From a bacterium (GTDB lineage: Bacteria > JADJOY01), in the NCBI GenBank assembly GCA_046331705.1, contig JAXLQJ010000013.1, forward strand, positions 62,001-126,000: a stretch of 64,000 bases of DNA. The letters run 5' to 3'. The first letter of the stretch is position 1. Every line of letters starts with the position of its first letter. The notes below the pieces were generated by a model. The model was not told the DNA's origin and ran no database searches. It saw nothing but the letters and a program-made list of their open reading frames with translations. The translations under genes and the position numbers were made by a program. Positions 3,141-20,630 of the stretch are shown here, piece by piece.

Positions 3141-3878
3141 GTGCTCGTGGGCGCGCTGCAACCCGGCTACCTGCCGTGGCTCGGCTTCTTCGATCAGGCG
3201 GATCGCTCCGACGTGTTCGTGCTCTACGACGATCTGCCGTTCGACCGCCGCTCGTGGCGGCAGCGCAATCGGATCAAGACCCCCCAGGGTCCGGCGTGGC
3301 TCTCGGTGCCCATCGCCCATCGCCACGAGAGCGGCGCGCCGCCCCCGACGATCCTGGAGGCGCCCATCGCCGCGGGTCACCCCTGGCGACGACAGCACTG
3401 GGAGGCGATCCGTCATTGCTACGCGGCAACGCCCTACTTCGACGACCATGCCCCCTTCTTCGAGCAAGTCTTCGCGCGCGACTGGACCGAGCTCGGCGCG
3501 CTCACACTGCACGTGATCGACTACCTGCTCGATCGGCTCGGCATCCGCTCGCGCGTGGTGCGCTCGAGCCAGATCGGCCTCGAACGCGCGTTCCGCGCGC
3601 GCGGCTTCCACGCCGATCGCCGCACCGAGCGCATCGCGTTCCTGGTTCGCGAGCTGGGTGGCACCGCGTTCCTGGAGGGAGCCGCCGGGCGAAGCTACAT
3701 CGACGAGGCGATCCTCGCCGCGCAGCAGGTCGGCGTCGTCTATCAGGACTACCGGCACCCGGCGTACCCGCAGCGCTTCGGCCAGTTCGCTCCCTATCTC
3801 TCCACCATCGACCTGCTCTTCAACTGCGGACCGGAGAGCCTCGCCGTCATCCGCCGTGGACGAGACGCCGATGACTGA
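3141..3878 (+). CDS. WbqC-like family protein
   Basis: QPGYLPWLGFFDQADRSDVFVLYDD, WRQRNRIKT, YPQRFGQF and LSTIDLLFNCGP motifs; GTG start chosen after GGAGG at 3128. Confidence 0.9.
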   Translation: MLVGALQPGYLPWLGFFDQADRSDVFVLYDDLPFDRRSWRQRNRIKTPQGPAWLSVPIAHRHESGAPPPTILEAPIAAGHPWRRQHWEAIRHCYAATPYFDDHAPFFEQVFARDWTELGALTLHVIDYLLDRLGIRSRVVRSSQIGLERAFRARGFHADRRTERIAFLVRELGGTAFLEGAAGRSYIDEAILAAQQVGVVYQDYRHPAYPQRFGQFAPYLSTIDLLFNCGPESLAVIRRGRDADD

Positions 3879-4785
3879 CGCTGCCGACTTCCCGGCGCGG
3901 CTCCACGTCGAGACCACCAGCGCCTGCAATCAGCGCTGCCGCTTCTGCACGCATCCGACCATGGAGCGGACCAAGCGGCACATGCCCGTCGATCTCTTCG
4001 AGAAGATCGCGCTCGAAGCGGGCAGCCATCGCGCACGCCTGTGGCTGCACTTCCTCGGCGAGCCGCTGCTCCATCCGCGGATCTTCGAGATGGTGGCGTT
4101 CGCCAAGCGCGCCGGCGCCCCCGAGGTCGGGTTCTCCACCAATGCCGTGCTGCTGACGCGCGAGCGGGTCGCGGAGCTCTTCGACTCCGGACTGGACCGG
4201 CTCGAGATCTCGATCGACGCGGCCACCGCCGAGGGCTACCTCGCGCTGCGCGGAACGGACGACTTCGCCGTCGTCACGACCCACGTCCGCGCGTTGCTGC
4301 GCGAGAAGCGCGCGCGGGGCGTCGCGCGCCCCACCATCACGCTGGCGTTCCTCGACGCCGGCCACGACACCGCCGAGCGACGACGGTTCCTCGCCGAGTG
4401 GGCTCCACTCCTCGACGAGCCGGATTTCCTGATGGCGATTCCCGCCATCAGCTTCGGCGGCGCCATCCCCGCCGCCCTTCCCGAGCGCGTACGCGAGCCG
4501 TGCCACTGGCTCTTCCGCGCCGCGCTCGTGCTCTCGAACGGTGACGTCGTCACCTGCGCGACCGATTACCGCGGCGAGCGCGTGCTCGGGAACGTGGCGC
4601 GCGAGAAGCTCGCGGACATCTGGCGCGGCGAGACCTACCGCGAGCTCCGGGCACGCCACGCGATCGGAGCGTATGCTGGAGTCACGCTCTGCGACACCTG
4701 CCGCGACTGGATCCATTCGGATGGGCGCGGCTACGTGAACTTCTCGCGGGACGAACGCTCGCCGCGCACGCGCCCCACCGAATGA
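3871..4785 (+). CDS. Radical SAM protein with SPASM/twitch domain
   Basis: CNQRCRFC, GEPLLHP and STN motifs; C-terminal PCHWLF..GDVVTC..LGNV..CDTC; overlaps the wbqC-like stop. Confidence 0.92.
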   Translation: MTDAADFPARLHVETTSACNQRCRFCTHPTMERTKRHMPVDLFEKIALEAGSHRARLWLHFLGEPLLHPRIFEMVAFAKRAGAPEVGFSTNAVLLTRERVAELFDSGLDRLEISIDAATAEGYLALRGTDDFAVVTTHVRALLREKRARGVARPTITLAFLDAGHDTAERRRFLAEWAPLLDEPDFLMAIPAISFGGAIPAALPERVREPCHWLFRAALVLSNGDVVTCATDYRGERVLGNVAREKLADIWRGETYRELRARHAIGAYAGVTLCDTCRDWIHSDGRGYVNFSRDERSPRTRPTE

Positions 4786-7484
4786 GTCCGAGGCTGGAAC
4801 GACGATCGGCCATGCGCGGGATCCTCACCGCCGCGGCGTTGCGCTCGCTCGGCCTCGCGCTCGCCGTGGCCGCCGGCACCCTGCCGCTCGCTGCGCCGCA
4901 CGCGCGGGCGGCGGTCGTGCTTCGCGAGGGATTCGACGCCGGCACGCTCGCGGCCGCCAGCGCAGTGGTGCTCGACGGCGCCAACGCCGCGACCGCGCTC
5001 GAGAGCACCGTTCGGCGCAAGGGGCTGCATGCGGCGCGCATCGATCGCGTGGCGGGCGCGCTGCGCTCGTACCTCCGCTACGACCTCGCGCCCGCGCGCG
5101 GCCAGCTGAACCTCCGCTTCGCCGTGCGCGTGGCACCGGGCGCAGCCGTGCCCGTCGGGCTCGAGCTCGCGGGGCTGGTGGGAGCGGATCCGGCGAAGCC
5201 ACTCGCCGCCGTCGTGCTCGAGCCGGATGGGACCCTGGCGCTGGTGGGCGACGACGGCGGCGGCACGGTCGTGACGACGCAGCCCAGCGCGGGCTTCGAC
5301 GACGCCATGGCCCCCGGCCAATGGTACGAGCTCGAGATCCGTTACCGCGGCGGCTCGACGCCGCCGGCCGCCGGAGTCGAGCTCTTCCGGGACGGCGTGC
5401 GCGTCCTGTCACGCACCGCCGTGGCGACGGCGGGCAGCGTCTCCTCCGTCAATCTCGGCCAGCGGGCAGGGTGGGCGAGCTTCACGAACAGCGCCGCGAC
5501 GGTCCATTACGACATCGTCGAGGCCGACGACGCCAACGCCGTCGGCCCCGAGAAGGATCATCCCGCGTTGGTCCTGGTCGATCGATCGAATGCGAGCGCG
5601 TACGCGGCGTACGCGTCGGAGCGCGCCAAGCGCACCCTCGACTTCTGGGGGCTCGCGTATCGCGAGGTGGATCTGGCGAGCGAGCCCGTCACGAGCGCCT
5701 TGCTCGCGTCCGCCGACCTGGTGGTGATCGGCCAGGAGCACGTCGCGGCGGCCCTCGGCGCGGCGGGTCAGAGCGCCGTCGGCAGCGCGGTCCAAGCCGG
5801 CATGGGGCTCGTGAGCCTGGATCCGTGGGCGAGCGAGTACGGTGCCGCGTTCCAGTCGCTGCTCGGCTCGCCAACCTACGGCGCCGCCACCACCACCCAA
5901 CAGCTCACCACCAACGATCCCGGCAGCCATTTCGTCCTGGCCGAGCAACCGACGGGCACGGACGATCCCACCAACCCGAGCGACGCGAACGTCCGCACGC
6001 TCTTCACCCGGCCGGGGGGCGCCTTCGGCTTCCAGACGCTGGCATCGGCAGGCAGCGCCACCGTCCTCGCCACCTCGGTCGGCGTCCCAGCGCTGATCGC
6101 GCGCAGCCACGGCAGCGGACGCGTGATCTGGTGGTTCGTGTCCCACGAGCTCTGGGACAACGAGGTGGACGTCACGCCGGGCTCCGAGTTCCATCCACTG
6201 TTGCGGATCGGCCACCTACACGGCTTGGACGACGTGCTCTGGCGCGGAGTGGTCTGGGCCCACCGCAAGCCGATGATCTGGTACCCGATGCCGGCGAAGT
6301 ACGCGGCCCTCAAGATCGACGACGCCCGCGGCCGATCGCTCGGCGGCGGCGGCGCGTTCGACTACGTCGACAGCGCCGTCACCACGCTCGGCGTACCCGT
6401 CCAGACGAGCCTCTTCCTGAGCTCGATCGGCGCCGGGTCGCCACAGGCGCTCGCGCTCGCCTCGCTGCAGGGCTCGAAGGGGATCGAGATCTCTCCTCAC
6501 GCCTTCGATGGCGGCGACCTCGATCCGCAACAACCCGCCTCGGACTTCCTGTTCTGGAAGCGTCAGACCGGCACGATGGGCGAGACGCTGCTCGACGAGC
6601 CGTGGGACGCGCCGACGCTGGCCGCGAACTGGACGAGCATCGACTCCTTCTTCTCGAGCCGCTCGCTGACTCCGAGCAAGTGGTTGGCGCCGCACGACGC
6701 CGTCGCCGGGCTCGACAACCTGTCCTACCTGACGGCGCGCGGGATCGAGTTCGCCCACACCACGCACGACCTCGCTGCGGCGAGCGGCACGGGGATGGCC
6801 GACTGGCTCGACGCCGCGCCCTTCGGCAGCGGTTGCCACGCGCTCGATTTCCTGGGCGGAACCCAATCGGTGTTCGCCGTCAGCACCTACGCCGACTGCG
6901 CGTTCTGGAACTTCGACTTCGACGTCAAGCAGGGCGTGGTGGCGCCCGTCACCGATCGCGACGAGGCCGTCGCGAACGCGCTGCTGCAAGCACGGCTCGC
7001 GCACGGCAGCCGCTTCCCGATGCTCTTCCTCACCCATGAATACGTCCTCGACGCCAACGGCTTCGACCTCGCCGATTGGCAATACATCGTGAGCCACGTG
7101 AAGTCCGCGCTCGCGGCCGACTCCGAGGTGCGCTGGGTGTCACCCACCGAGCTGGCGCGCGCCGCTCGCGAGCACGCGGGCAATCGGATCCTGTCGCTGG
7201 TGCGCAGCGGCAATCAGTTCGAGCTCTTGATGGAAGGCAGCTCGAGCGCGGGGACGAGCGTCGAGCTGTGGAAGGCCGGCGAGCTGCGCCTGCACCTGCC
7301 GATCTCCGCCTTCTTAGGCACGTCCCTGACGACACCCATCGCCCAGTGCGGGCGCCTCGCCGGCGGTGACGACGGGCGCCACGCTTGGATGGGGATGTGG
7401 CCCGCTGGGCTGGTGCTGATCGCCGTCGCACGGGGGCGCGCGCGGCTGCGCGCCACCCGCCGGGGAAGCGTGCGGAACGCGTGA
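4782..7484 (+). CDS. Large secreted protein with a polysaccharide-deacetylase-like domain and a C-terminal membrane/sorting tail
   Basis: Signal peptide (..APHARA), beta-rich N-terminal domain, LKIDD / SPHAF / LAPH / FLTHE motifs reminiscent of the NodB fold, and a C-terminal Cys-Gly + hydrophobic helix + Arg-rich tail. Confidence 0.6.
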   Translation: MSPRLERRSAMRGILTAAALRSLGLALAVAAGTLPLAAPHARAAVVLREGFDAGTLAAASAVVLDGANAATALESTVRRKGLHAARIDRVAGALRSYLRYDLAPARGQLNLRFAVRVAPGAAVPVGLELAGLVGADPAKPLAAVVLEPDGTLALVGDDGGGTVVTTQPSAGFDDAMAPGQWYELEIRYRGGSTPPAAGVELFRDGVRVLSRTAVATAGSVSSVNLGQRAGWASFTNSAATVHYDIVEADDANAVGPEKDHPALVLVDRSNASAYAAYASERAKRTLDFWGLAYREVDLASEPVTSALLASADLVVIGQEHVAAALGAAGQSAVGSAVQAGMGLVSLDPWASEYGAAFQSLLGSPTYGAATTTQQLTTNDPGSHFVLAEQPTGTDDPTNPSDANVRTLFTRPGGAFGFQTLASAGSATVLATSVGVPALIARSHGSGRVIWWFVSHELWDNEVDVTPGSEFHPLLRIGHLHGLDDVLWRGVVWAHRKPMIWYPMPAKYAALKIDDARGRSLGGGGAFDYVDSAVTTLGVPVQTSLFLSSIGAGSPQALALASLQGSKGIEISPHAFDGGDLDPQQPASDFLFWKRQTGTMGETLLDEPWDAPTLAANWTSIDSFFSSRSLTPSKWLAPHDAVAGLDNLSYLTARGIEFAHTTHDLAAASGTGMADWLDAAPFGSGCHALDFLGGTQSVFAVSTYADCAFWNFDFDVKQGVVAPVTDRDEAVANALLQARLAHGSRFPMLFLTHEYVLDANGFDLADWQYIVSHVKSALAADSEVRWVSPTELARAAREHAGNRILSLVRSGNQFELLMEGSSSAGTSVELWKAGELRLHLPISAFLGTSLTTPIAQCGRLAGGDDGRHAWMGMWPAGLVLIAVARGRARLRATRRGSVRNA

Positions 7485-7608: not shown

Positions 7609-8661
7609 ATGGCAACCGAACGACCCAGCGACGATCCAGCCGCGTCCGAGCGTGGCGCGAGCGACGGCGATGACACCGCGGACGCGCCCGCGAGCGACGT
7701 CGAGCTGCTGCCGATCCCCCTCGCCGGCGCCGTGCCGGTGGCTGTCGATTCCGCCGAGCCGGAAGCGGTCGTTCCCGAGCTCGTCGACGAACCGTTCGCA
7801 CCCGTCGACGGCGCGATCGTCCCGCACGATCCGCTGAGCCGCTACCTGGCGGAGATCCGCCGCTACGCCGTCCTCGACCGCGACGAGGAGCACCGCCTCG
7901 CGGTGGCGTACCGGGAGCACGGCGACGTCGACGCAGCCTACCGGCTGCTCACGTCCAACCTCCGGCTGGTGGTGATGATCGCTCGCGAATATCAGCGCTC
8001 GCTCCGCAACCTTCTCGACATCATCCAAGAAGGCAACGTCGGCCTGATGGAGGCCCTCAAACGCTACGACCCGTATCGGGGCGTGCGCTTCCCGAGCTAC
8101 GCCGTGTGGTGGATCCGCGCCTACATGATCCGCTACATCCTCAACAACTTCCGGCTGGTGAAGATCGGCACCACCCAGGCGCAGCGCAAGCTCTTCTTCA
8201 ATCTCAACCAGGAGAAGCAGCGGCTCGAGCGGATGGGAATCCATCCCGGCCCGGCACTGCTGGCGGAGCGCCTCGACGTCGAGGAACGCGAGATCACCGA
8301 GATGGAGCAGCGCCTGGCGACGCCCGAGATCTCGACGGAGACGCCGATCGGCGACGATCAGAGCACCACGCTGCTCGGCGTCCTCGCTGCCGAGGGCACC
8401 CCCGCCGACGAGCTCCTCGCGGACGAGGAGTATCGCGAGGCGGCGATGACGGCGATCCAGGCGTTCGCACGCGGCCTCACGGGCAAGGAGAAGATCATCT
8501 TCGAGGAACGGTTGCTCAACGAGAATCCGGCCACGCTCGAGACGCTGGGCAAGCGATTCGGCGTGACGCGCGAGCGCGTGCGGCAGCTCGAGAAGCGCCT
8601 CCTCGACCGGATGCGCGAATCGCTCGAGAAGGAGCTCGCCGGCTTCCGCACCGCCGAGTGA
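7609..8661 (+). CDS. rpoH: RNA polymerase sigma-32 factor (RpoH family)
   Basis: SNLRLVV, DIIQEGNVGLM, RFPSYAVWWIRA, RpoH box VKIGTTQAQRKLFFNL and region 4 GVTRERVRQLE; start uncertain. Confidence 0.9.
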   Translation: MATERPSDDPAASERGASDGDDTADAPASDVELLPIPLAGAVPVAVDSAEPEAVVPELVDEPFAPVDGAIVPHDPLSRYLAEIRRYAVLDRDEEHRLAVAYREHGDVDAAYRLLTSNLRLVVMIAREYQRSLRNLLDIIQEGNVGLMEALKRYDPYRGVRFPSYAVWWIRAYMIRYILNNFRLVKIGTTQAQRKLFFNLNQEKQRLERMGIHPGPALLAERLDVEEREITEMEQRLATPEISTETPIGDDQSTTLLGVLAAEGTPADELLADEEYREAAMTAIQAFARGLTGKEKIIFEERLLNENPATLETLGKRFGVTRERVRQLEKRLLDRMRESLEKELAGFRTAE

Positions 8662-8737
8662 TCCGGTCGAACGCGGCGACGCCGAGGGCCCCCCGAAGCA
8701 CCGGGCGAGGGGACGATCGAGAGCGGACGATTCGGGT

Positions 8738-8767
8738 TTGCGGCGTGCTCGGCACGCGTGTTAGGGT
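8738..8767 (+). promoter_or_regulatory. Putative sigma70 promoter (extended -10) driving a non-coding transcript
   Basis: TTGCGG-N18-TAGGGT with a TG extension; same -35 (TTGCGGCGT) and spacing as the promoter at 12040. Confidence 0.55.
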
Positions 8768-8773
8768 CCGCTC

Positions 8774-8978
8774 GTCGACCTCGCGGTGTCGCACGGGCGG
8801 TCCTAAAGCAGGGGGAAGCCACCGGCCTTCCACGGACCCGACGTCGGATTCCCGGGCACACGGCGAGCGAGGCATTCGGTCGTCTCGCTCGGACCAGGCG
8901 ACGGCCTGCCCACCTACCTTGCCGTAGTACAGCGCGCGCCGTACTACCGGGGGGCCCCCAGCCCCCCTCTTCTTTTTT
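8774..8978 (+). ncRNA. Candidate ~200-nt structured non-coding RNA
   Basis: Lies between a promoter-like element and an intrinsic terminator; stems GGAAG/CTTCC (8814-8831), CGAGCGAGGC/GTCTCGCTCG (8864-8891), GTAGTAC/GTACTAC (8924-8947) and GGTCC/GGACC; no credible ORF. Confidence 0.5.
8949..8978 (+). terminator. Rho-independent terminator
   Basis: GGGGGGC-CCCCA-GCCCCCC stem-loop followed by TCTTCTTTTTT. Confidence 0.8.
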
Positions 8979-9006
8979 CGTCGTCGGGCTTCGGGTCGCG
9001 CGCGCT

Positions 9007-10593
9007 TCAGGTGTGTCCAGGGTCGGCGGCGAGCGGACCCAGCACGGAGCGCGTGGCCGACCGCGGACGCAACGCGCCGACGGACTCGAGCCAGCGCCGC
9101 AATCGACGAGCCATGTACGTCCGGTAGCGCGCGAAGAATCGCACTTGGAAGAGCGATGGCGGCGCCCCGCGATCACGCAGGTTGAAGATCACACCCGTGA
9201 TCAGGAACGGATCCACCACCGGCAGGAACCGATAGGCCCGCGTCGCGAGCCCCCACTCGATCCACGAGCGCGGCAGGAACAGCAGCAGTGACAGGAACGT
9301 CTGGAAGCGTCGCTGGATGGGCGTGCCCTTGCCGGGTGCATTCACGTGGATCGCCACCGGCGGGGGATCGGCGCGGTAACCGAGCGCCTCGGCCTGGGGG
9401 ATCCACCCTGCCTCCTCGGCTAGCTCGAGGATGCGTGCGCCGGCAAAGTACGTGAGCCAGTACATGTTGATGCGGCTGGGGCGCACGCGGTTGTAGAAGC
9501 GCGCCAGGCTCGCGAGCTCCTCCTCGCCTTGGCCGGGAAGCCCGAGGATGTTGTCGCAGGCTGCGCGGATCTTGGTGCCGCGCAACAGCTCGATCGCATT
9601 CTCGACGTCGGCGTTGGTCTCCGAGCGCGCGAGGAGCCCGCGGCGGGTCTCCTCGGAATAGGTCTGCACCCCCATCTGAAGCTCGTAGCAGCCGGCGCGC
9701 TCCAGGCACTCGACGGCCTCGCGGGTGAGCTTGTCGGGGTTGCCGAGGCACCAGAACGGCAACGCCACCTCGCGGGAGTAGCGATCCGCGAACTCCCGCA
9801 GCCAATCCAGGTTGTAGACGAAGTTGTCGTCGAAGAACCGCACCACCTTCGGATCGTAGCGGTGCTTCGCCAGCTTGAGCTCGGCCACGACGTTCGCCGG
9901 GCTGCGCCGCCGGACGTAGCGATCACCGGGCCGGGTCTCGGCCGGCAGGTTGGCGAAGAAGCTGTGGTAGCAGAACGTGCAACGCAGGTGACAGCCGCGG
10001 CCGCTCTGGATCGTGTAGCCGAACCCGAAATACGCGGCTTCGTCGACGAAGAGATCCTTGGCAGGGAACGGCAGCGAGTCGAGGTCCTGAATGAACGGCC
10101 GCACCGGGTTCTGGACGATCACGCCATCGCGACGCAACGCGATGTTCGCCACATCGGTGTCGCGCTGACCCCTCGCCAGCGCGCGCATCAGATCGACGCA
10201 GGCGTCGTCCCCTTCGCCCACCACCACGTAATCGACGTTGGGGTCGACGAGCACCTTCTCGGGCACCGCGCTGGCGTGCACGCCGCCGAAGACCACGGTC
10301 GCGTCCGGCTTGGCGCGCTTGAGGTCCGCGGCCATGCGCGACGCCCAACGCTGCACGGGGCTCACCACCGAGAAGAGATAGGCATCGGCGTCGAGCGCGA
10401 CGGCCCGCTCGATCGTCTCTCGTTCGTAGTTGAAGCGCGGCTCGAGCCAGCGGCTGCTCACGTAGGTGTCGGAGAAGAGCCGGGGATCGAACACCATCCC
10501 CACCTCGAAGCCCGCCCGCAGCAACGACGCGGCAACGGCCTCGACTCCGAGGAACTCGAAGCCCTGGTGCACGAAGACGACGCGGAACGACAT
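9007..10593 (-). CDS. B12-binding domain radical SAM protein
   Basis: N-terminal cobalamin-binding region (LGVEAVAA..VVFGGVHAS..VVVGEGD), SGRGCHLRCTFC, RRRSPANVVAE, FFDDNF and ILGLPG motifs. Confidence 0.92.
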   Translation of the reverse strand: MSFRVVFVHQGFEFLGVEAVAASLLRAGFEVGMVFDPRLFSDTYVSSRWLEPRFNYERETIERAVALDADAYLFSVVSPVQRWASRMAADLKRAKPDATVVFGGVHASAVPEKVLVDPNVDYVVVGEGDDACVDLMRALARGQRDTDVANIALRRDGVIVQNPVRPFIQDLDSLPFPAKDLFVDEAAYFGFGYTIQSGRGCHLRCTFCYHSFFANLPAETRPGDRYVRRRSPANVVAELKLAKHRYDPKVVRFFDDNFVYNLDWLREFADRYSREVALPFWCLGNPDKLTREAVECLERAGCYELQMGVQTYSEETRRGLLARSETNADVENAIELLRGTKIRAACDNILGLPGQGEEELASLARFYNRVRPSRINMYWLTYFAGARILELAEEAGWIPQAEALGYRADPPPVAIHVNAPGKGTPIQRRFQTFLSLLLFLPRSWIEWGLATRAYRFLPVVDPFLITGVIFNLRDRGAPPSLFQVRFFARYRTYMARRLRRWLESVGALRPRSATRSVLGPLAADPGHT

Positions 10594-10810: not shown

Positions 10811-11977
10811 CTATACTCCGCCGCTTTCGCCGCCGTCAACGAACCCATCCGCGTACGCCGCTTCGACGAGCACGCGGCGCAACCCGCGCGCGGCGCGCTC
10901 CCACGTCCAACCGGCCGCCTGGACACGGCCGCGCGACGCCATTCGTGCCCGCGCGACGTCGTCGGCCGCCAGCGCGTCGACGGCATCGGCCCAACCGGCG
11001 ACGTCGTCGGGTGCGACCCAGCACACGGCGTCGCCACCCGTCTCCTCGAGCACCGGCAGCGCGCTCGCCACCACCGGCGCGCCCTGCGCGAGGGCTTCCA
11101 GCAGCGGCAGCCCGAATCCCTCGAAACGCGTCGGCATCAGCACGAGCCGTGCGGCGCGGTAGAGCTGCGCGAGCTCGGCGCGCGGCACCCAGCCGAGATG
11201 GCGGACGTGAGCGCCGAGACCAAGCTCGCAGACACGCGCGCCGATGCGCCGATCGGCGAAGCCTCGAACGCCCGTGAGCACCAGCATCGGCGGACGCGAA
11301 CCGCGCTCGACCATCCGCCGCCACGCGTCCAGCAGCACCGCGTGGCCCTTGTGGGGATGGGTGGTGCCCACGCAGAGCGCGAACGGCGGCTGCACACCCA
11401 CCCGTGCCATCCAGCGCGGAAGCGGATCGTCGCGCGAAGCCTCCAGCCATGCGGGATCGACCCCCAACGGAACGTGGCGCAGCCGCGACGCGACGGAGGG
11501 CCGTGACCTCACCAGATCGCGGCCGGCGGCGGCGCTGGCGCACACGACGCGATCCGAGCGCGCGAGCGCCAGATCCACCAGGACACGCCAGGCGATGCGA
11601 TGGGATGCGCGGAAATGCTCCGGATGCACGAGGTGCTGCAGGTCGTACACCGAGGTCACCTGCGGCACGGGGGACAGCGCCGGGGCGGTGAATCCGGCGT
11701 TCCACAACACGTCGTGACCGTCCCGTGCGATCCGCTGCGGCAGCACGAGCTGCTCCCATGCGATCCGGCCTGCCCGAGGGCGAGTTCGAGTGCCACACCC
11801 GACGACCTCGACCCCCGCCGGGAAGCGCTCGCGCTTCGCCTCGCTCCGCGCAACGTAGACGCGAATCCGGTCCTGCGGGGCGATCGCGACCAAGCCGCCC
11901 AGCAATCCCGCCAGCGCGATCTCGGACCCACCCACCCTTCCCCAGCGCAGGAAGAGCGCGTTGACCGCGATCCTCAC
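10811..11977 (-). CDS. GT4 glycosyltransferase (WbdB/WbpY-like)
   Basis: RIAVNALF..GGSE, YDLQH..HPE, VGT..PHKG and EGFGLPLLEALAQGAPVV motifs. Confidence 0.9.
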   Translation of the reverse strand: MRIAVNALFLRWGRVGGSEIALAGLLGGLVAIAPQDRIRVYVARSEAKRERFPAGVEVVGCGTRTRPRAGRIAWEQLVLPQRIARDGHDVLWNAGFTAPALSPVPQVTSVYDLQHLVHPEHFRASHRIAWRVLVDLALARSDRVVCASAAAGRDLVRSRPSVASRLRHVPLGVDPAWLEASRDDPLPRWMARVGVQPPFALCVGTTHPHKGHAVLLDAWRRMVERGSRPPMLVLTGVRGFADRRIGARVCELGLGAHVRHLGWVPRAELAQLYRAARLVLMPTRFEGFGLPLLEALAQGAPVVASALPVLEETGGDAVCWVAPDDVAGWADAVDALAADDVARARMASRGRVQAAGWTWERAARGLRRVLVEAAYADGFVDGGESGGV

Positions 11978-12039
11978 GTGCGACCCGTGCTCGGCGTGCA
12001 CCGCGCTGGCAACCCGCCGCGGCGCGACCCGCCGCCGCG

Positions 12040-12141: not shown

Positions 12142-13311
12142 ATGGCGCTCGCAAGCTCGAAGTCCTACAGCGATTACGCCACCGACTTCCGGTTCTGGGC
12201 CTCGCGCACGTTCAACCGGGCGTGGGTTCGCCCCGACTGGGTGTCGGTCAACCTCACGCTGCGCTGCAACCTGACGTGCGAGATGTGTCGGGTCTGCTAC
12301 GACGTCCCGAACGAGCTCAGCCTGGACGAGATCAAGTCCATCATGGACCAAGTCCATCAGTGGGGCGTCCCCATCTTCAATCCGCTGGGCGGCGAGCCGT
12401 TCCACCGCAAGGACATCCTGGACATCCTCGAGTACGCAGCGGACAAGCGATTCCAGACCACCGTGACCAACAACGGCACGATGATCGGCCCCAAGCGCGC
12501 GGAGGCCCTCGCGCGGCTGCAACGCGTGCACCTCAACTTCTCGCTCGATGGTCTGGAAGAGGCCAACGATCGCATTCGGGGCAAAGGCGTCTTCCGCAAG
12601 GTCTGGAACACCATCGCGACCATCCGCGCCGAGGAAGCGAAGCTCGGCGACTACCGGAAGTGGATCAGCATCAACTGCATCGTGTCGGAGGCGAGCTTTC
12701 GCGATCTCGTGACCATCGGCGAGATGGCGCGGCGGGCCGGCTGCAACATGATCCAATTCCTCAACCTGTTCGGCTACGAGTCCAAGGTCGGCCGCGAGAC
12801 CACGGATCCGCTCTGGATCCAATCCGACAGTCTCGAGGTCTTCGATCGCGAGATGGACCGGGTCGCGGAATGGGTGCGTCGCCTCGACGGTACCGGATTC
12901 CACTGCGCCAACGCGCCCGCGGACCTGCTCTTGCTCAAGGACTATTACCGTCATCGCGTCGAGCCGCACCGGGCGAAGTGCTACAACGGCTTCAAGGAGA
13001 TGTACATCAATTCGGACGGCGAGACGTTGATCTGCGACGCGCACCTGAACTTCACCAAGGAGTCGTACGGCAACGTGCGCCAGCGATCGCTCCGTGATCT
13101 GTGGGAAAGCCAGAAGGCGCGTGAGCTGCGCAAGAAGGTCATCGACTGCACCTCGCCGTGCATCCAGGACTGCTATCTCCGACGCGACGCCGATGCCCTC
13201 ACCCCCATCCTCGTGGGGCTCGGCAAGACCCGCTTCCTCGAATCCCCGATCGGCCGCCTGATCTTCGAGGGGCGCTTGCCCGGCGCCGTTCCGGCCGCGG
13301 CCACCGGCTGA
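12142..13311 (+). CDS. Radical SAM protein with SPASM/twitch domain
   Basis: CNLTCEMC, GGEPF, SLDG and DRIRGKG motifs; C-terminal KCYNG..DGETLIC..GNVR..CTSPCIQDC. Confidence 0.92.
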   Translation: MALASSKSYSDYATDFRFWASRTFNRAWVRPDWVSVNLTLRCNLTCEMCRVCYDVPNELSLDEIKSIMDQVHQWGVPIFNPLGGEPFHRKDILDILEYAADKRFQTTVTNNGTMIGPKRAEALARLQRVHLNFSLDGLEEANDRIRGKGVFRKVWNTIATIRAEEAKLGDYRKWISINCIVSEASFRDLVTIGEMARRAGCNMIQFLNLFGYESKVGRETTDPLWIQSDSLEVFDREMDRVAEWVRRLDGTGFHCANAPADLLLLKDYYRHRVEPHRAKCYNGFKEMYINSDGETLICDAHLNFTKESYGNVRQRSLRDLWESQKARELRKKVIDCTSPCIQDCYLRRDADALTPILVGLGKTRFLESPIGRLIFEGRLPGAVPAAATG

Positions 13312-13330: not shown

Positions 13331-15676
13331 GTGCGGATCGGCATCGTCACGCGCGGGGACGTCTTCCCGGCCGTCCACGGCGCCGCGGTCAAGATCGTGC
13401 GAACCGCGGAGGGATTGGGACGCCTGGCGCCGCCGTGCGTGCTCGTCACCGATCGCAAGGACGTGTACTGGCGCTTTCACGGGGACCGCGTCGAGGAAGT
13501 GCCCTTTCCCGCGTGGACCCGGCGCATCCGCGATCACCGCGTCGCGCGCGAGAAGCTCCTCGAGTGGATCGGCGTACCGCCCGAGGACCGCTTGCTCTTC
13601 GTCCCGCTGCTGGACCTGAACTTCCTCGCCCGAATCGTGAGCACGGTGCGGCGCGAGAAGCTCACGCTGCTGCAGGCCGAGTTCCCGTTCTACGCGGTGC
13701 CGATGCTGATCGCGCGCGCCATGACCGGCGTTCGCACCTCGATCATGCAGCACAACATCGAGCATCTGCGCATGGCGGGATCGTCGGGCCTCGCCGGCGC
13801 CGCGCAGGCGCGCGTACGCCGAATCGAGAGCTTCCTGTGCCGGCACGTCCAGGACGTGATCGCGCTCTCCGAGGTGGATCGCGCGCACCTCGTCGAGATG
13901 GGCGTCGATCCGCGGCGCATCACGATCATCCCGCACGGAGTCGATCTCGCGAGCTACGACGGGCGGCCGCGGCTCGACGCGCGCGCGGCCCACGGCATCG
14001 ATCGTGAACGCCCGCTGCTGGTCTTCCACGGCACGCTGCACTACGGCCCGAACACCGACGCCGTGCGCATCCTCGCCGAGGAGATCCTGCCGCGCCTGGT
14101 GCGACGCGGGCGGGACGTGCAGGCGATGGTCTGCGGCATGGGCCCACCCCGCCGGTACGCGAGCGAGCGGCTGGTCTTCACCGACGTGGTCGACGATCTC
14201 GCGTCGCACCTGCGTGCCGCCGACGTCGCCGTGGTGCCGCTGCTCGACGGCGGCGGCACGCGCATGAAGATCCTCGAGTACATGGCCGCGCGGCTGCCGA
14301 TCGTCTCGACCCGCAAGGGCGCCGAGGGCATCCCGGTCGAGCATGGCCGCGAGCTCTTGCTCGCGGACGACCGCGACTGGGATCGCTTCGCCGATCACGT
14401 CGACTACCTGCTCGGCGCACCCGCCGAGCGGCGGCGGCTCGGCGAAGCGGCGCGCGACTTCGTTCAGACGCTCGACTGGCTCGAGATCGCCCGCGCCTAC
14501 GTGCGTGCCTACCGCGTCCCCCGCGGCCCGCTCGAGCGACTGCGCGCCCGCTACCAGCGCCTCGCCCGCAAGGTGCTCACCGAGCCCGCCGGACCGGTCG
14601 GCGAGTCGCTCGCCAAGGCGCACCAGCGCGCGGAGAACGAGCGCGAGAAGGCCGCGTACCTGGGCTACCTCGACGGCCGCGCCGCGGTGCCCACACCCAA
14701 GATCCTGCTCTTCCTGCTCAACAAGAACTGCAACCTCAAGTGCGTCTTCTGCGACCTGTGGCCGCACCACGACATGATGCCCCACGAGCGCGTGCGCAAC
14801 GTGCTCGAGCAGGCGGCCGAGATGGGCACGCGTCACGCGGTGCTCACCGGCGGCGAGCCCTTCGTGATCCCGTACCTCTTCGACGTGATCCGCTACGCCA
14901 AGGATCTGCGGCTCGGCGTCAACGTCACCACCAACGGCACGCTGATCGAGAAGCGCTTCGAGGAGCTCGCCGACGCAGAGCTCGACTCGCTCTCGGTGTC
15001 GATCGACGGCCTCGACGACTCCAACGACGACCTGCGCGGCAAGATCTCGCTCGACAAGATCCTGAGCGGCATCGAGCGCCTTCGCCACGCGTCGCGGATG
15101 AAGATCTCCATCTACCACGTGGTCACGAACAAGAACCTGCACCAGCTCGAGCACACCTACGAGTTCGCGCGCTCGATCGGCGCCGAGTTCGGGTTCTGGC
15201 CGGTCAACGGGTACGAGTTCCTGCACGTCCGCGATCCCGAGCAGGTGCGCGCCTATCTCGCGACCATCGACAGGCTCGCGGCACGCGACGAGGAGGTGCG
15301 CGTCCGCCGCGAGTACTATCAGCGCGCGATGGCGTACCACAGCGCCAATCAACTCTCGGTGCGCTGCCTCGGCCTGGTCCAGAAGTTCGGCGTCGACGTC
15401 AACGGCAACGTGCTGCCCTGCTGCGTGTGGGGCAACCAGAGCCTGGTGGTCGGCAACCTCTTCGAGACACCGCTGCGCACGCTGTGGGGCGCGAGCCAGA
15501 CCCATGCGCTGCGCCGTAAGATCTTCGACCAAGGCTGCAAGGGGCTCTGCTACAACCACGCGCTCTACGAGTTCCAGGAGATCACCGGGCTCGACTTCGT
15601 GGTACGCGACGCGGACAAGCCCGCCCATCGGCCGGCGGTGCTCGACACCCCGGCGCTCGCCGCCGCGGCGGGCTGA
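13331..15676 (+). CDS. GT4 glycosyltransferase fused to a radical SAM/SPASM domain
   Basis: N-terminal GT4 (GGGTRMKILEYMAARLPIVST) continues in frame into CNLKCVFC, TGGEPF, VTTNG, SIDG and a SPASM-like RCLG..GNVLPCC..CKGLC region. Confidence 0.9.
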   Translation: MRIGIVTRGDVFPAVHGAAVKIVRTAEGLGRLAPPCVLVTDRKDVYWRFHGDRVEEVPFPAWTRRIRDHRVAREKLLEWIGVPPEDRLLFVPLLDLNFLARIVSTVRREKLTLLQAEFPFYAVPMLIARAMTGVRTSIMQHNIEHLRMAGSSGLAGAAQARVRRIESFLCRHVQDVIALSEVDRAHLVEMGVDPRRITIIPHGVDLASYDGRPRLDARAAHGIDRERPLLVFHGTLHYGPNTDAVRILAEEILPRLVRRGRDVQAMVCGMGPPRRYASERLVFTDVVDDLASHLRAADVAVVPLLDGGGTRMKILEYMAARLPIVSTRKGAEGIPVEHGRELLLADDRDWDRFADHVDYLLGAPAERRRLGEAARDFVQTLDWLEIARAYVRAYRVPRGPLERLRARYQRLARKVLTEPAGPVGESLAKAHQRAENEREKAAYLGYLDGRAAVPTPKILLFLLNKNCNLKCVFCDLWPHHDMMPHERVRNVLEQAAEMGTRHAVLTGGEPFVIPYLFDVIRYAKDLRLGVNVTTNGTLIEKRFEELADAELDSLSVSIDGLDDSNDDLRGKISLDKILSGIERLRHASRMKISIYHVVTNKNLHQLEHTYEFARSIGAEFGFWPVNGYEFLHVRDPEQVRAYLATIDRLAARDEEVRVRREYYQRAMAYHSANQLSVRCLGLVQKFGVDVNGNVLPCCVWGNQSLVVGNLFETPLRTLWGASQTHALRRKIFDQGCKGLCYNHALYEFQEITGLDFVVRDADKPAHRPAVLDTPALAAAAG

Positions 15677-15720
15677 GCGACACGAACGCGAGCGCGCGGC
15701 GCCGAGCGGCCCTCACGAGC

Positions 15721-16077
15721 ATGACGACCCCCGACGAACGTCGTACCGAGTCCCGCACCCCGGACGATCAAGCCGTCGAGCTCGTCGTGGCTCGCAGCGA
15801 GACCACCAGCGAGTCCGCGACGCGAATCCCGACGCGCCTCGTCGATCGCTCGCGCTCGGGCTGCTGCCTGGCGCTCGAGAAGCTTCAGTTCGGTTCGATC
15901 CACCTGCTCGACTGCATCGAGGATCCCGGCGATTTCCGCATCGAGGTGCGGCTGCCGAGCGGCCGTCGCGACGAGCCCGTGCGCACCGCCCGCGTGGTCT
16001 GGATCAATCGGATCTTCGAGGGCGCCGGCCCGGCGTTTCGCATCGGCCTCAAGCTCGGCGCGCCGGCGCGCGGCTGA
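15721..16077 (+). CDS. Stand-alone PilZ domain protein
   Basis: RxxxR (RTESR) and DxSxxG (DRSRSG) c-di-GMP-binding motifs; ARVVW..IGLKL C-terminus. Confidence 0.75.
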   Translation: MTTPDERRTESRTPDDQAVELVVARSETTSESATRIPTRLVDRSRSGCCLALEKLQFGSIHLLDCIEDPGDFRIEVRLPSGRRDEPVRTARVVWINRIFEGAGPAFRIGLKLGAPARG

Positions 16078-16107
16078 CGCCACCGGCGGCGATCGCGGCC
16101 GCGACCG

Positions 16108-17199
16108 TCATCCGGCGGCGAGGAGATCGCGCAGCTCGGCGCGGATCGCGAGCGTGTCCTCGACGAAACCCAGGTTGCAATCCGAGCACACGTCGAAGAG
16201 CCCACCCGCGAGCAGCCAGTCGCGCATGCGCCCGTAGTAGTCGCCGAGCCACGCTTCCTCGAGCCCGCGCGCGCCCAAGCGCTCGCCGTGCATCGGCCGC
16301 CAGAACCCGCACGAGCCCAGCTGGCCGTTGGCGCGCAGGTGCAGGAACCAGAACGGGTTGAAGCAAGGCGCACGCAGCAGGCCGTCGGCGCGATCGGCGG
16401 CTTCGAGCAACGCGAGGTGAACGCGGTTGGTGGAGAGGATCGAGCGCTCGCTCAGCTCGTGGGCGTTGGTCGCCACACCGAGCCGCCGTCCCTCCTCGAC
16501 CACCCGCGGCGCCACGTCCGCCACGAACGCACGCGCCTCGTCGCGGCTCAGCTTGAGGCGTGCGCTCTCCGGCGAGTTCACGGTGATCGGCTCCAGGTTG
16601 ACCGCGTGCACCCCGGCGTCCGCCGCGAGCACCATCACCTCCGGCACCCGGCGCCAGTTGAGGGTGGTGAGCGCCAAGCCGAAGTTGAGCCCGGGCCGAT
16701 CGGATCGCAGCGCACGCTTCACCTGGTCGAAGCGCCGCGCGGCCCACATCAGCCGCTCGAACGCGCCGCTCTTGCGGACCAGACCATCGTGGGTCACGGC
16801 GTCCGGTCCCTCGAGGCTCAGGCTCACCCAATCCCAGCCGTAGCTCACCAGGTCGTGGATCAGCTCGCGCGTGAAGAGCGTGCCGTTGCTGCAGAGGTAA
16901 GAGCGGATCCCGACTCGCTTCACGTGGCGCAGCACCTCGGCGGCCTCGGGGTGCAGCAGCGGCTCGCCCTCGCCGATGACGCGCACGTAGCGCACGTCCA
17001 CGCGAGCGGCTTCGTCCAGGATCTCGCGCCAGCGCGCGGCGCTCAGCGTGCCGCCGACCAGCTTGGTGTCGGGATGCTGGCGCCAGCAGAACGTGCAATC
17101 CGCGTTGCACGCCATGGTGAGGCCGAGCTCGAGCGTGTGAGGTCCACGGGCGCGACCCGCGGCCCAATCGGCGAGCCGCGCCAGGCGTTCGTCGTGCAT
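16108..17199 (-). CDS. Radical SAM protein with SPASM/twitch domain
   Basis: CNADCTFC, GEGEPLL, SNGT and SLEG motifs; C-terminal PCFNPF..GQLGSC..CSDC. Confidence 0.9.
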   Translation of the reverse strand: MHDERLARLADWAAGRARGPHTLELGLTMACNADCTFCWRQHPDTKLVGGTLSAARWREILDEAARVDVRYVRVIGEGEPLLHPEAAEVLRHVKRVGIRSYLCSNGTLFTRELIHDLVSYGWDWVSLSLEGPDAVTHDGLVRKSGAFERLMWAARRFDQVKRALRSDRPGLNFGLALTTLNWRRVPEVMVLAADAGVHAVNLEPITVNSPESARLKLSRDEARAFVADVAPRVVEEGRRLGVATNAHELSERSILSTNRVHLALLEAADRADGLLRAPCFNPFWFLHLRANGQLGSCGFWRPMHGERLGARGLEEAWLGDYYGRMRDWLLAGGLFDVCSDCNLGFVEDTLAIRAELRDLLAAG

Positions 17200-17384
17200 C
17201 GGCGGGTGAGGATTCTCGAGCGACTGCGGCGCGCGCGGGCGGGAACGCGATTCTATCGTCGCGCCCGGCGCGCCACCAACGCGTGGGTAGCGTGGTGGTG
17301 CGCTCGGAGCCCGCCTGCTACGATGCGCGCCTCGCGCCTCATGTCCGTCGCCACGCCGCCCTCGCCGTCCGTCGTTCGGTTCCG

Positions 17385-20300
17385 ATGGACGTTCTGATCC
17401 TGATGCAGGGGATGGTGCCCATCCCCGGGCATCCCGTGACCGGCAACGGCTTGCGCGCGCACGCGCTGGCCGAAGGGCTCGCGTGCCACGGCCACCGGGT
17501 TCGTCTGGCGACCCGCGCGATCGACGCCGACGCCGTCGACCCCGCGCTGCTGCCCGCGGAGACCCTGCGTTACGACGACGCATCGTCGATCCCCGACCTG
17601 ATCGCGGGAAGCGCCGCCGAGGCCGTGCTGGTCTGTCACGCGGAGCTGCTCGAGCAACTTCCCGATCCCAGCCCCGTTCCGGTGATCGCCGACCTCTACG
17701 GGCCGCGCCTGGTCGAAGCCCAGTTCGAGCGCGCGGACCTCGACCGCGAGGGGGCGCGATTCGTCGAGCAGCTGCGGCGCGCCGACGCGTTCCTGGTCGC
17801 GACCGAGCGGCAGCGCTGGTTCGCCCTGCCCTGGCTCATGCTCGCCGGCTTCGACTGTCGCAAGCCTCCGGTGCTCGTGGTGCCGCTCTCGGCGAACCCG
17901 CGACCGCCGCTGCGCTTCCATCGCAAGCCGGTCGCCGATCTGACCTTCGTGACGGGTGGGGTCTTCTGGCCGTGGCGGGAATCGGAAGCGCCGCTCACGC
18001 GGCTGCTCGGTGTGCTCGAGCGCGCAGGGCGCGGGCACGTCCAGCTCTTCGGCGGCAGCTACCCGCTCGCCACCGAGGCGAACGTGACCTATCGCGATCC
18101 ACGCGCCACCGTCGCGCCGCATCCCCGCCTTCGGTTCCAGGGGATGGTGGCGTACGACCGGCTCTTCGAGCACTACGCCCGGGCACAGGTGGCGTTCGAC
18201 GTGATGGAGCCGAACGCGGAGCGCGAGCTGTCGTTCTCGTTTCGCGTGATCGACTACCTGGCGGCGAGCCTGCCGGTGGTGACCAATCGCTTCACCGAGA
18301 TCGCCGCGGTGATCGAAGCGAGCGAAGCGGGTTGGTGCGTCGACGTGGAGGCGCCGGGCGAGCTCGAGCAGACGCTGGAGCGCATCCTGGCGGACCCCGG
18401 CGAGGTCGCGCGTCGCGGCGCCAACGCGCGCCGCCTGGTGGAGACGCGCTACGCCTGGGACCGGACCGTCGAGCCGCTGGACCGCTACCTGCGCGCGCCG
18501 ACGCGAGCCGCGCGCGGTGCCTCGGTGCTCGGCACCCTCGTGCAGGTCGCCGGGGAGGCCTATCGCGCCCGCGAGGACCGCCTGCGCGAGATCGAGCGCA
18601 GCCGCCAGGCGGTGCGGCGCGCCGAGGAGCTCGATCAGGCCTTGGCCGCCTTGCGCCAAGCCGACGCCGAGCGCGCCAACGAAGCGAGCCTGATGCGCGC
18701 GGAGCTGGAGGCACGCAGCCGCGACCTCGAATCCCTCAAGGAACAGGCGGCCGCGTGGCGACGCGACGGGGCCGTCCAGGCCGCGGAGCTCGACGGTCTG
18801 CGCGAGACCGTGGCGCGCAAACAGCGCCAGGTCGAGGAGACCATCGAGCTACGCGACCGCGCACGGCGCGAGGCGGAGGCGCTGACCCACCGCCTCGACG
18901 CGCTCGAGCAGGCCGTGCGACACCACGAGAAGGTGGGCCGCGAGCTGGAAGCCGAGCGCGAGCGGCTCGCGCGCGAGGCCGACGCATTGCGCGCCGAGCG
19001 CGATCGCGAGCGTGAGCGCGAGCAAGAGCGCGTCGCCGAGGGCCTCGAGCGCCGGGAGCAGGCGCGACGCGAATCCGAAGCGCTCGCTCACCGCGTCGCA
19101 ACCCTCGAGCAGGAGCTACGTCACCACGAGAAGCGAGTCCGTGAGCTCGACGTCGAACGCGAGCGCGCCGTGCGCGAGGCCGACGGGCTGCGCGCCGAGC
19201 GGGATCGCGAGCGCGAGCGCGTCGTCGAGGGGCTGGAGCGCCGGGAACAGGCGCGACGCGAATCCGAGGCACTGGCCCATCGCATCGAAACGCTCGAGCA
19301 GGAGCTGCGCCATCACGAGAAGCGGATCCGCGAGCTCGACGCCGAACGCGAGCGCGCGGCGCGCGAGGCGGACGCGACGTGCGTCGAGCGGGACCGCGAG
19401 CGAGCGCGCGTGGCGGAGCTGGTCGGATCGCTGCGCGAGGCGACCGACTCCACGCGCGAGGCCCGCGCCGCGCGCGACCAGCTCGAGGACGAGCTGCGCG
19501 GCGTGCGTGCGCAGGCCGAGCACCGCGTGGAACAACTTCGCGACGCGATCGCACATCGCGACACGGAAGCGCAGCGCCACAAGGCGGCGCTCGCCGAGGC
19601 CGAGCACGAGCGCGAGCGCGGCGCCGAGGAACGCAAGCAGCTGGCACTTCAGCTGGAGCGCGTCGATGCCAAGGCCGTCGAGGCGGAGCGCCGCCTCGAG
19701 CACGCACGCGAGCAGCTCGCCGCGCGCGAGCTCGAGGTGGCGCGCGCCCGGGGCGTCGCCGCGGATGCGGAGCGGGAGCGCGATCGTCTCGCGCAGGAGT
19801 CTCAAGCGCTCACGCGGGCACGCGATGCATTGGAGGCCAAGGCCCATCAGCTCGAGCAACGGCTCGAGGCGCGCGGCGCGGAGATCGAGGAGCTCGCGCG
19901 CCAGGTGGCGACCTTGCGCGGCGAGATCGAGGTGCGCACGGCGGAGATCGCCCGCAAGCACGCCGAGCTCGAGGCCGCCACCCGCGAGCGGGACCACGAG
20001 CGCAGCCGCGGCGCGGCGCGCGACGAGGAGATCCGCAAGCTCAAGGACCTGGTGTCGGATCGCGAGCGAGAGCGAGACCGCGCCCACGCCGACGCCCAGG
20101 ACCTGCGGGTCCGGGTGGAGACGCTCACGCGCGATCTCCACGAGGCGGGGGTGGCCGCGCGCGCCCAGACCGAGCGAGCCGCCCACGAGCTCGAGTCGAC
20201 GCGCGCGGCGCTGACGCACGAGCGCGAGGCGCGCGGCAGCGCGGAAACCGCGCTCGAGGGCTTGCGCACCGAGGCGCACGAGGCGCGCGCGCGACACCAG

Positions 20301-20630
20301 GGCGAGCTCGAGCGGCTCGCGCACGAGCTGGCGACGCGGGACCGCGATCTCGCCTGGTATCGAACGGAGGCCGAGTCCAAGGAGCGCGCGCTCTGCGAGG
20401 CCCGCGAGCGCGCGAGCCAGGATCGCGCGAACGCCGACGCGCTCGCCCACGCGCTCGCCGCCCACGACGACGCACAGCGAGCACTCGAGGCCGAGCTGCG
20501 ACGGCTGAAGGCCACCCCCATGCTGCGGTTGTGGCTACGACTCTGGGGCCGTCGCACCGAGCGCGACGACGCTCCCGGCATTGCGAGCCCGGTCACCACC
20601 CCGCCCCCACCCACGGAGCGCGACCGATGA
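17385..20630 (+). CDS. GT4 glycosyltransferase with a very long C-terminal coiled coil
   Basis: GT-B domain (GGVFWPW, ERELSFSFRVIDYLAASLPVV, YAWD) followed by about 650 E/R/A/L-rich heptad residues ending in the amphipathic PMLRLWLRLWGRR. Confidence 0.85.
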   Translation: MDVLILMQGMVPIPGHPVTGNGLRAHALAEGLACHGHRVRLATRAIDADAVDPALLPAETLRYDDASSIPDLIAGSAAEAVLVCHAELLEQLPDPSPVPVIADLYGPRLVEAQFERADLDREGARFVEQLRRADAFLVATERQRWFALPWLMLAGFDCRKPPVLVVPLSANPRPPLRFHRKPVADLTFVTGGVFWPWRESEAPLTRLLGVLERAGRGHVQLFGGSYPLATEANVTYRDPRATVAPHPRLRFQGMVAYDRLFEHYARAQVAFDVMEPNAERELSFSFRVIDYLAASLPVVTNRFTEIAAVIEASEAGWCVDVEAPGELEQTLERILADPGEVARRGANARRLVETRYAWDRTVEPLDRYLRAPTRAARGASVLGTLVQVAGEAYRAREDRLREIERSRQAVRRAEELDQALAALRQADAERANEASLMRAELEARSRDLESLKEQAAAWRRDGAVQAAELDGLRETVARKQRQVEETIELRDRARREAEALTHRLDALEQAVRHHEKVGRELEAERERLAREADALRAERDREREREQERVAEGLERREQARRESEALAHRVATLEQELRHHEKRVRELDVERERAVREADGLRAERDRERERVVEGLERREQARRESEALAHRIETLEQELRHHEKRIRELDAERERAAREADATCVERDRERARVAELVGSLREATDSTREARAARDQLEDELRGVRAQAEHRVEQLRDAIAHRDTEAQRHKAALAEAEHERERGAEERKQLALQLERVDAKAVEAERRLEHAREQLAARELEVARARGVAADAERERDRLAQESQALTRARDALEAKAHQLEQRLEARGAEIEELARQVATLRGEIEVRTAEIARKHAELEAATRERDHERSRGAARDEEIRKLKDLVSDRERERDRAHADAQDLRVRVETLTRDLHEAGVAARAQTERAAHELESTRAALTHEREARGSAETALEGLRTEAHEARARHQGELERLAHELATRDRDLAWYRTEAESKERALCEARERASQDRANADALAHALAAHDDAQRALEAELRRLKATPMLRLWLRLWGRRTERDDAPGIASPVTTPPPPTERDR
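18861..19424 (+). repeat. Intragenic tandem repeat, three units (201 nt, 189 nt, partial)
   Basis: Units start at 18861, 19062 and 19251, each encoding ARRE[AS]EAL.HR...LEQ..RHHEK..REL..ERER..READ...ERDRER. Confidence 0.9.

Follow-up and report, generated by a model that had tools for sequence, protein, structure and literature searches.

Background

What is known of radical sugar chemistry comes mainly from individual steps of antibiotic pathways and a small number of lipid head groups. HygY is reportedly a radical S-adenosylmethionine (SAM) sugar epimerase. For NeoN, passages of PMC10991966 name Cys249 as the hydrogen donor in epimerisation, and parts of PMC13459092 describe the radical remodelling of a glucose-derived lipid head group by the calditol synthase Cds and present Cds and Tes/Gms as lipid precedents of radical chemistry. 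Radical SAM genes in glycan loci have been annotated but are unstudied, and most such loci are variable and therefore poor targets. The general pattern, radical SAM genes within a locus of glycosyltransferase (GT) and rfb genes, is already in print as annotation: in sections of PMC4267127, a plasmid locus of Brachyspira hyodysenteriae is described with six radical SAM genes, several of them uncharacterised, among GT, epimerase and rfb genes. Those sections present it as mobile and strain-variable and report no fusion, and its likeness to the locus studied here is one of description only. In this work we analyze a locus rich in radical SAM genes at positions 3141-20630 of a 64,000-nucleotide stretch of bacterial DNA (the window, to which all position numbers refer), with particular attention to the four genes of 12142-20630, one of which fuses a family 4 glycosyltransferase (GT4) domain to a radical SAM domain.

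These genes encode two radical SAM enzymes (rS3 and rS5), the fusion, and an atypical GT4 with a coiled-coil-like tail (GTcc). They are members of a conserved set that is dispersed over the genome and comprises two GT4 domains and six or more radical SAM domains of the Twitch type. We regard the chances as about even that the set builds and radically edits a lipid-carried envelope glycan; its product would be a surface glycan or glycolipid. This work newly defines the full set, finds it distributed in a nearly all-or-none way, connects three contigs, adds the link through tandem GTs and excludes the left half of the locus. A literature search, with most subscription journals outside its reach, found no description of the fusion or of the set. 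Below, G000 denotes the host genome and C-numbers its contigs, other G-numbers denote other genomes, and L-numbers denote loci.

Results

Distribution and co-inheritance of the set

The genes for rS3, the fusion, rS5 and GTcc form a tightly co-inherited set in uncultured bacteria. Across the 81 genomes of the class of G061, the fusion was found in 58, rS3 in 57, rS5 in 55 and GTcc in 58; 52 genomes have all four genes, 21 have none, and eight have two or three. The members are single copy, and the near all-or-none pattern holds in genomes of 3.6-4.7 Mb with few radical SAM candidates. The rS5 matches in G370 are probably paralogues, and the all/none counts are unaffected by them. One subclade (G088, G149, G184, G199, G274, G367, G370, G371 and G376) carries 1-6 extra rS5-like paralogues, some of them in open frames of 3,000-9,000 residues.

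The fusion has 522 homologues at an expectation value (E) of at most 1e-30 among 7,999 scored candidates, with identities of about 38-45% outside close kin. In the best 120 of the 522, the GT motif precedes the radical SAM motif in every case, and 116 have the full pattern of C-terminal cysteines. It was identified in 38 of 301 genomes of the phylum of G061 and in 58 of the 81 genomes of its class, always as one copy, sometimes split in two. A random sample of 55 distant genomes yielded it only in G050, as two adjacent genes. From the source names of homologues and from the Atlas we infer that the phylum is Myxococcota, some member records being labelled Rickettsiales or Alphaproteobacteria.

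A tree of radical SAM domains (97 rows from a quick search, without the surplus copies of the fusion and without rows that had few relatives) places rS5 with the family that neighbours the fusion elsewhere, at a Shimodaira-Hasegawa-like approximate likelihood ratio (SH-aLRT) of 98, and rS3 with a gene in the radical SAM run of G065 (support 100). It also defines three further groups, types A, B and T, whose host orthologues lie at C7:106.8 kb, C7:115.8 kb and C39:59.0 kb; it is on these two contigs that the true partners of the fusion are found. Among the 301 phylum genomes, type T is strong in 39 (three further matches are weak and stand alone) and types A/B occur in 39, the carriers being all 38 fusion carriers and G112.

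Members of the set regroup as neighbours in varied combinations in four deep lineages, those of the window, of G065, of G061's class and of G050. The blocks in the class of G061 are fusion-B-T, rS5-A(-SPASM) and rS3-GTcc. Seven radical SAM domains stand in one run with SPASM pieces in G065, which has an rS3 orthologue and whose GTs lie elsewhere; G050 keeps the GT, the radical SAM gene and an rS5-like gene together and also has GTcc and type T. The collection holds six genomes of the host phylum and one genome each of G065's class and G050's phylum. Around the split fusion of G050 (L016:2253-17144) lie a GHMP kinase gene, a sulfatase-like gene and genes for membrane proteins of GT-C-like type (YfhO, TPR-bearing). 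Type A is itself split in L190:7949-9069, L193, L231 and L245, its radical SAM core and Twitch segment being separate adjacent genes.

The rS3 profile retrieved 751 representatives at E of at most 1e-30. The 54 long proteins scanned from the best 150 of these comprise two close orthologues and 52 relatives; 18 of the 52 carry GT2 (family 2) or GT4 domains, two carry methyltransferase domains, and most others are tandem radical SAM proteins. In G061's class, rS3 is usually fused to a second radical SAM-like domain of the type A/B family (L254:14054-16303, L255:13498-15831). This second domain apparently lacks a CxxxCxxC start, its profile match beginning at position 43.

The WbqC-like protein, the radical SAM enzyme rS1 and the B12-binding radical SAM enzyme, all encoded in the left half of the locus, are outside the conserved core. 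In five distant core-carrying genomes, WbqC was found in one, the B12 enzyme had a good match (E 8e-82) in one, and rS1 had no match better than E 2e-22; the five-genome sample is small, yet it contrasts with the core. A first-pass annotation, made from the sequence alone, had read five radical SAM enzymes and WbqC together with the GTs as an undescribed glycan pathway. Its observation is confirmed and its interpretation partly supported: three of the radical SAM families are tied to glycosyltransferases by fusion, adjacency and co-occurrence, but the five enzymes and WbqC are not one locus-bound pathway, and the co-occurrence it proposed to examine did not hold for WbqC, rS1 and the B12 enzyme in the five genomes. 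WbqC with rS1, and the B12 enzyme with GT4a (the ordinary GT4 encoded upstream of it), probably make two sugar-tailoring pairs, each separate from the core and specific to the lineage. Since rS1 is BtrN-like and its gene overlaps wbqC, an amino-sugar tailoring role separate from the core is plausible for that pair.

Links to glycan assembly

Eight metagenome loci (L114, L116-L122) and two of the 300 genomes scored in the class of G386 (G406 and G409) encode GTcc and the GT of the fusion as a single protein; in G406 the tandem GT protein follows GT2 genes. Because the tandem protein of G406 and G409 occurs without orthologues of rS3 or of the fusion's radical SAM domain, the GT pair would be the older unit and the radical SAM enzymes an added layer. 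The head of GTcc is a GT4, and its coiled-coil-like tail gives weak SMC matches; such tails range from 300 to 1400 residues. Directly after the GTcc orthologue of G050 lies a gene for a Wzt ATPase, and in 10 of 39 genomes the module has genes for a DegT aminotransferase, an NAD epimerase or a hexapeptide acetyltransferase as neighbours. Five strong Wzt homologues are encoded elsewhere in G000, and no wzm/wzt was found among the scanned proteins of 3141-31363.

In O-antigens exported by ATP-binding cassette (ABC) transporters, coiled-coil rulers such as WbdD keep a set distance. The WbdA/WbdD/Wzm/Wzt systems share with the set a GT combined with what looks like a long coiled coil and, in G050, the Wzt gene; they differ from it in that the head of GTcc is a GT4, not a kinase/methyltransferase, and in that the locus has no wzm/wzt. 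We know of no radical SAM enzyme among the parts of these systems.

Cysteine patterns and related enzymes

In passages of PMC6231123, SPASM is described as a seven-cysteine motif with two auxiliary clusters, and the fully ligated auxiliary cluster of BtrN is linked to radical oxidation. The seven-cysteine motif is lacking in the fusion, rS3, rS5 and types A, B and T. Of conserved C-terminal cysteines, rS5 and types A/B have four each, and type T, rS3 (the invariant 280, 298, 336, 340 and 344) and the fusion (679, 697, 698, 736 and 740) have five. This agrees with Twitch, a truncated SPASM of about four cysteines, and the cysteines of rS1 align with those of BtrN. Matches to PF13186 (SPASM) were obtained for rS1, rS3 and the fusion and not for rS5. 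The counts fit one predicted Twitch auxiliary cluster rather than the two of SPASM.

For none of the five radical SAM proteins of the locus does the score reach the cut-off in any of its 25 best NCBIfam families. Among the top matches, the PqqE, NirJ/Ahb, MoaA and MftC equivalogs score at best about 80-110 bits against cut-offs of about 400-575. The outcome that the first-pass annotation had named as fatal to its proposal, clustering with characterised maturases and homologues apart from GTs, was thus not observed, and the homologues of three of the enzymes are GT-linked. The PEP-CTERM system GT TIGR03087 scores 91 bits against a cut-off of 316.65. A hopanoid assignment (HpnH/I/J/K) was rejected: neither HpnJ nor HpnH scores are above cut-off, the B12 enzyme scoring 102 against the HpnJ cut-off of 578, and squalene-hopene cyclase was above cut-off in none of five genomes (G000, 96% complete, and four others). 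A hopanoid acceptor is unlikely. An assignment to Tes was likewise rejected, the type T orthologue scoring 58 against a cut-off of 450.

All matches of these radical SAM enzymes to solved structures are weak. BtrN (2-deoxy-scyllo-inosamine dehydrogenase, 4M7S/4M7T) is the best match of rS1 (E 5e-12), with both the core and the four-cysteine Twitch segment aligned, and of types A/B (E 1e-10); it differs in its low identity, its antibiotic pathway, its free cyclitol substrate and the absence of a GT fusion. BlsE (cytosylglucuronate decarboxylase, 7VOB/7VOC) is the best match of rS5 (E 9e-13) and the second match of the fusion and rS3 (rS3 fold Z 20.0, root mean square deviation (rmsd) 3.2, 277 residues aligned). 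It belongs to a nucleoside antibiotic pathway, is only 13% identical to rS3 in the fold alignment, and matches by sequence in the radical SAM core only. That the best solved relatives of rS1, types A/B and rS5 act on sugars or cyclitols argues for sugar substrates. The fold search with the rS3 model (6-sequence alignment, predicted local distance difference test (pLDDT) score 71) fails to separate sugar from peptide enzymes.

A possible course of the chemistry can be outlined. Since other bacteria have the two GT4 domains in a single polypeptide, these would attach successive sugars. The coiled-coil-like tail may keep GTcc at a fixed distance, by analogy with O-antigen rulers. The core proteins have no transmembrane stretch by hydropathy and therefore would act on the cytoplasmic side. 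In each radical SAM enzyme, the 5'-deoxyadenosyl radical would take hydrogen from a sugar carbon of the growing glycan or of its nucleotide-sugar donor. The four-cysteine enzymes (rS5, types A/B) would then pass an electron to a fully ligated auxiliary cluster and form a keto sugar, as BtrN does. In the five-cysteine enzymes (fusion, rS3, type T), the spare cysteine might return hydrogen and so cause epimerisation, as in NeoN; this is a weak step. The comparison with NeoN and HygY, radical SAM enzymes with a cysteine hydrogen donor acting on sugars, is one of mechanism.

Organization of the locus and its surroundings

The genes of the locus are as follows.

3141..3878, plus strand: WbqC-like protein (Pfam WbqC, E 5e-66); kept in close kin, outside the core
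3871..4785, plus strand: rS1, BtrN-like Twitch radical SAM enzyme; overlaps wbqC, outside the core
4782..7484, plus strand: probably exported 890-residue protein whose fold resembles DUF2194 and deacetylase-containing proteins
7609..8661, plus strand: RpoH-like sigma factor (NF005143 above cut-off); interrupts the locus
9007..10593, minus strand: B12-binding radical SAM enzyme; close paralogues elsewhere in the genome, outside the core
10811..12001, minus strand: GT4a, ordinary GT4 glycosyltransferase; upstream of the B12 enzyme
12142..13311, plus strand: rS3, radical SAM enzyme with Twitch-like C-terminus; core member
13331..15676, plus strand: GT4 fused to a radical SAM/Twitch-like domain in one 781-residue frame; core member
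15721..16077, plus strand: PilZ-like domain with RxxxR and DxSxxG motifs (Pfam E 5e-4, under cut-off); core membership lacks support
16108..17199, minus strand: rS5, radical SAM enzyme with four invariant C-terminal cysteines; core member
17385..20630, plus strand: GTcc, atypical GT4 (about 400 residues) with a 680-residue coiled-coil-like tail; core member

All five CxxxCxxC proteins that the first-pass annotation had seen within about 14 kb are present, each with a Radical_SAM (PF04055) match above the Pfam cut-off. Pfam also bears out its WbqC-like gene and its three GT4 domains (GT4a, the fusion and GTcc, the last narrowly, PF13692 30.7 vs 27). Its PilZ call holds as a domain match, a weak one below cut-off, and the motifs make this protein a possible sensor of cyclic di-GMP. 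Its description of 4782-7484 as deacetylase-like finds loose support: ThuA is under the Pfam cut-off, and an Atlas model resembles DUF2194 and polysaccharide-deacetylase-containing proteins at a template modelling (TM) score of about 0.5. The sigma factor, which splits the locus, had been missed. The start of rS5 is likely at 17199 rather than at 17583 of the longer open reading frame (ORF). Strand changes and the internal rpoH gene divide the locus into at least five transcription units, so that it is not a single one. Kin genomes keep the gene order as far as their contigs extend, completely in G003, and the least conserved gene is GT4a (55% identity in G003).

The SAM synthesis and recycling genes metK and ahcY (344-2919) adjoin the locus, also in G003; in the distant class neither was seen next to the module. 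After GTcc, one run on the plus strand (20627-24045) encodes a Gfo/Idh/MocA (inositol-dehydrogenase-like) oxidoreductase, a BadF-type sugar kinase and a GH4 hydrolase; it is conserved in kin and was not seen next to GTcc in distant genomes. The gap between rpoH and the B12 enzyme (8735-8980) is non-coding, 79-86% conserved in four kin loci, and has a terminator-like hairpin at its end; it matched no Rfam family (6S RNA included), and its folding energy is ordinary (z -1.3). Promoter and terminator scans gave no excess over shuffled sequence. Nine sludge or wastewater metatranscriptomes share 5-15% of words with the locus, and four of them gave short contigs with a depth of about 2-7 across it, which demonstrates neither transcription nor operon structure. 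A second GT cluster lies on the minus strand at 35111-47264, with five GT4 genes including a two-domain GT4 of 824 residues (44106-46577), as well as a polyphosphate kinase and an S1/P1 nuclease. Its two short proteins without a Pfam match (43627-43986 and 46650-47264) we take to resemble parts of ABC-type glycan loci.

Density of radical SAM genes in the host genome

The host genome (8.2 Mb) has 144 PF04055 matches, many of them apparently B12-type by motif, and kin have similar candidate counts. For clustering statistics we used 142 of these, two under cut-off having been removed. Five stretches, on C7, C13, C28, C39 and C46, hold at least five radical SAM genes per 14 kb. A cluster of this kind arose in 0.9% of 2000 shuffles and so exceeds random placement. 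Because the genome has so many matches and five such clusters, five radical SAM genes per 14 kb are not special in it, and their density alone is weakly informative.

Discussion

Several observations weigh against a lipid-carried glycan built by the set. Every chemical step is inferred. Passages of PMC6231123 state that sequence is a poor guide to function in this radical SAM subfamily and that SkfB, a sactipeptide maturase (6EFN), likewise has a Twitch domain with five C-terminal cysteines, so the spare fifth cysteine is not diagnostic. SkfB is moreover the top match of rS3 and the fusion, tied or nearly tied with BlsE (rS3 fold Z 21.4, rmsd 3.5, 268 residues aligned; PqqE fold Z 19.9). In the window, no wzm/wzt, polymerase or nucleotide-sugar genes lie next to the core, and a variable O-antigen locus would be neither so strictly conserved nor scattered in this way among housekeeping genes. 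Since G406 and G409 have the GT pair but no orthologue of rS3 or of the fusion's radical SAM domain, the GTs work without them. G050 has no rS3 orthologue (best E 5e-51). Only 17 of 142 radical SAM genes lie within 5 kb of a GT4 (66 GT4 matches), against a random expectation of 7.2 +/- 2.6. The kin genomes are not independent, the 52-versus-21 split may mostly follow one clade, and the class carriers may be one order. As to the acceptor of such a glycan, the coiled coil and Wzt speak for an exported chain, strict conservation for a glycolipid or other fixed structure.

The set could instead make a small glycosylated molecule or a glycolipid head group (a calditol-like ring contraction or an aminocyclitol pseudo-disaccharide) with no polymer at all. 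Such a product would suit genes that are strongly conserved, occur in single copy and have housekeeping genes (metK, ahcY, RNase H, lon, dnaX) as neighbours. It would also agree with the nearest solved GT structures, of the MshA, PimA and BshA types with small or lipid acceptors, the small-molecule substrates of BtrN and BlsE, the inositol-dehydrogenase-like gene after GTcc in the window, and the Cds and Tes/Gms precedents in parts of PMC13459092. We nevertheless consider it unlikely, given the long coiled-coil tails and the Wzt neighbour in G050, which point to exported chains, the lack of squalene-hopene cyclase in the five genomes, and the low Tes score of type T. Slightly more doubtful is a glycan carried by type IV pilin or some other surface protein, in a pilus glycosylation pathway with radically edited sugars. 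In 17 of the 39 genomes with loci examined, a member has homologues of pilB/C or pilH/I/D no more than about 10 kb away, the module stands beside pil genes and DegT and epimerase genes in L193, L201, L244 and L245, and PilZ-type genes recur nearby, flanking the module in L193, L201 and L211. This linkage may, however, reflect one ancestral gene order in one class: it is absent from the host (pilB/C on C30, pilH/I on C36, pilD on C11) and from the G065 loci examined, none was seen in the G050 loci, and the genes next to the module include no recognisable pilin or oligosaccharyltransferase.

That there is no single pathway, and that lineage-specific paralogues cluster through tandem duplication and shared ancestry in genomes rich in radical SAM genes, seems improbable to us. 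The 144 matches and five dense clusters of the host, the mutual relatedness of rS3, type T and the fusion's radical SAM domain, and the possibility that the carriers are one order would be expected under this explanation, but identical orthologue groups come together again, as neighbours or as fusions, in four deep lineages, and the members remain single copy and near all-or-none even in the smaller genomes. Very improbable, in our view, is a glycopeptide pathway in which the enzymes mature a distant precursor of a ribosomally synthesised and post-translationally modified peptide (RiPP) and the GT adds a sugar. SkfB, PqqE and SuiB are among the top sequence or fold matches of rS3 and the fusion, but SkfB has an N-terminal RiPP recognition element (RRE) and a precursor peptide, neither of which was found here. 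The motif of the stand-alone enzymes starts at residue 19-42, leaving no room for an RRE, and the rS3 model predicts one N-terminal helix only. The first-pass annotation had likewise seen no RRE. PqqD gave no match in the scanned window proteins or in the 54 long rS3 homologues scanned from the best 150 of 751. No conserved small ORF, peptidase or peptide exporter emerged at the loci examined, and no precursor peptide is evident in five intergenic gaps, the other loci having been covered for ORFs of at least 70 residues and distant precursors not searched for.

Conclusions

The set ties together clusters on three host contigs that would otherwise be read as separate pathways. Its members are single copy, about 40-45% identical (fusion, rS3) across distant lineages, and nearly all-or-none, and therefore make a small fixed list of enzymes to assay. 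The fusion is a direct entry point, because the product of its GT names the likely substrate of its radical SAM domain. We hold it as a tentative and rather doubtful idea that a core envelope glycoconjugate, the product of two GT4 and six to eight Twitch radical SAM domains, is common to an uncultured Myxococcota-like clade and to deep lineages related to it. If true, this would be the first housekeeping glycan or glycolipid made via serial radical editing, with a new sugar skeleton, and a biomarker of the lineage.

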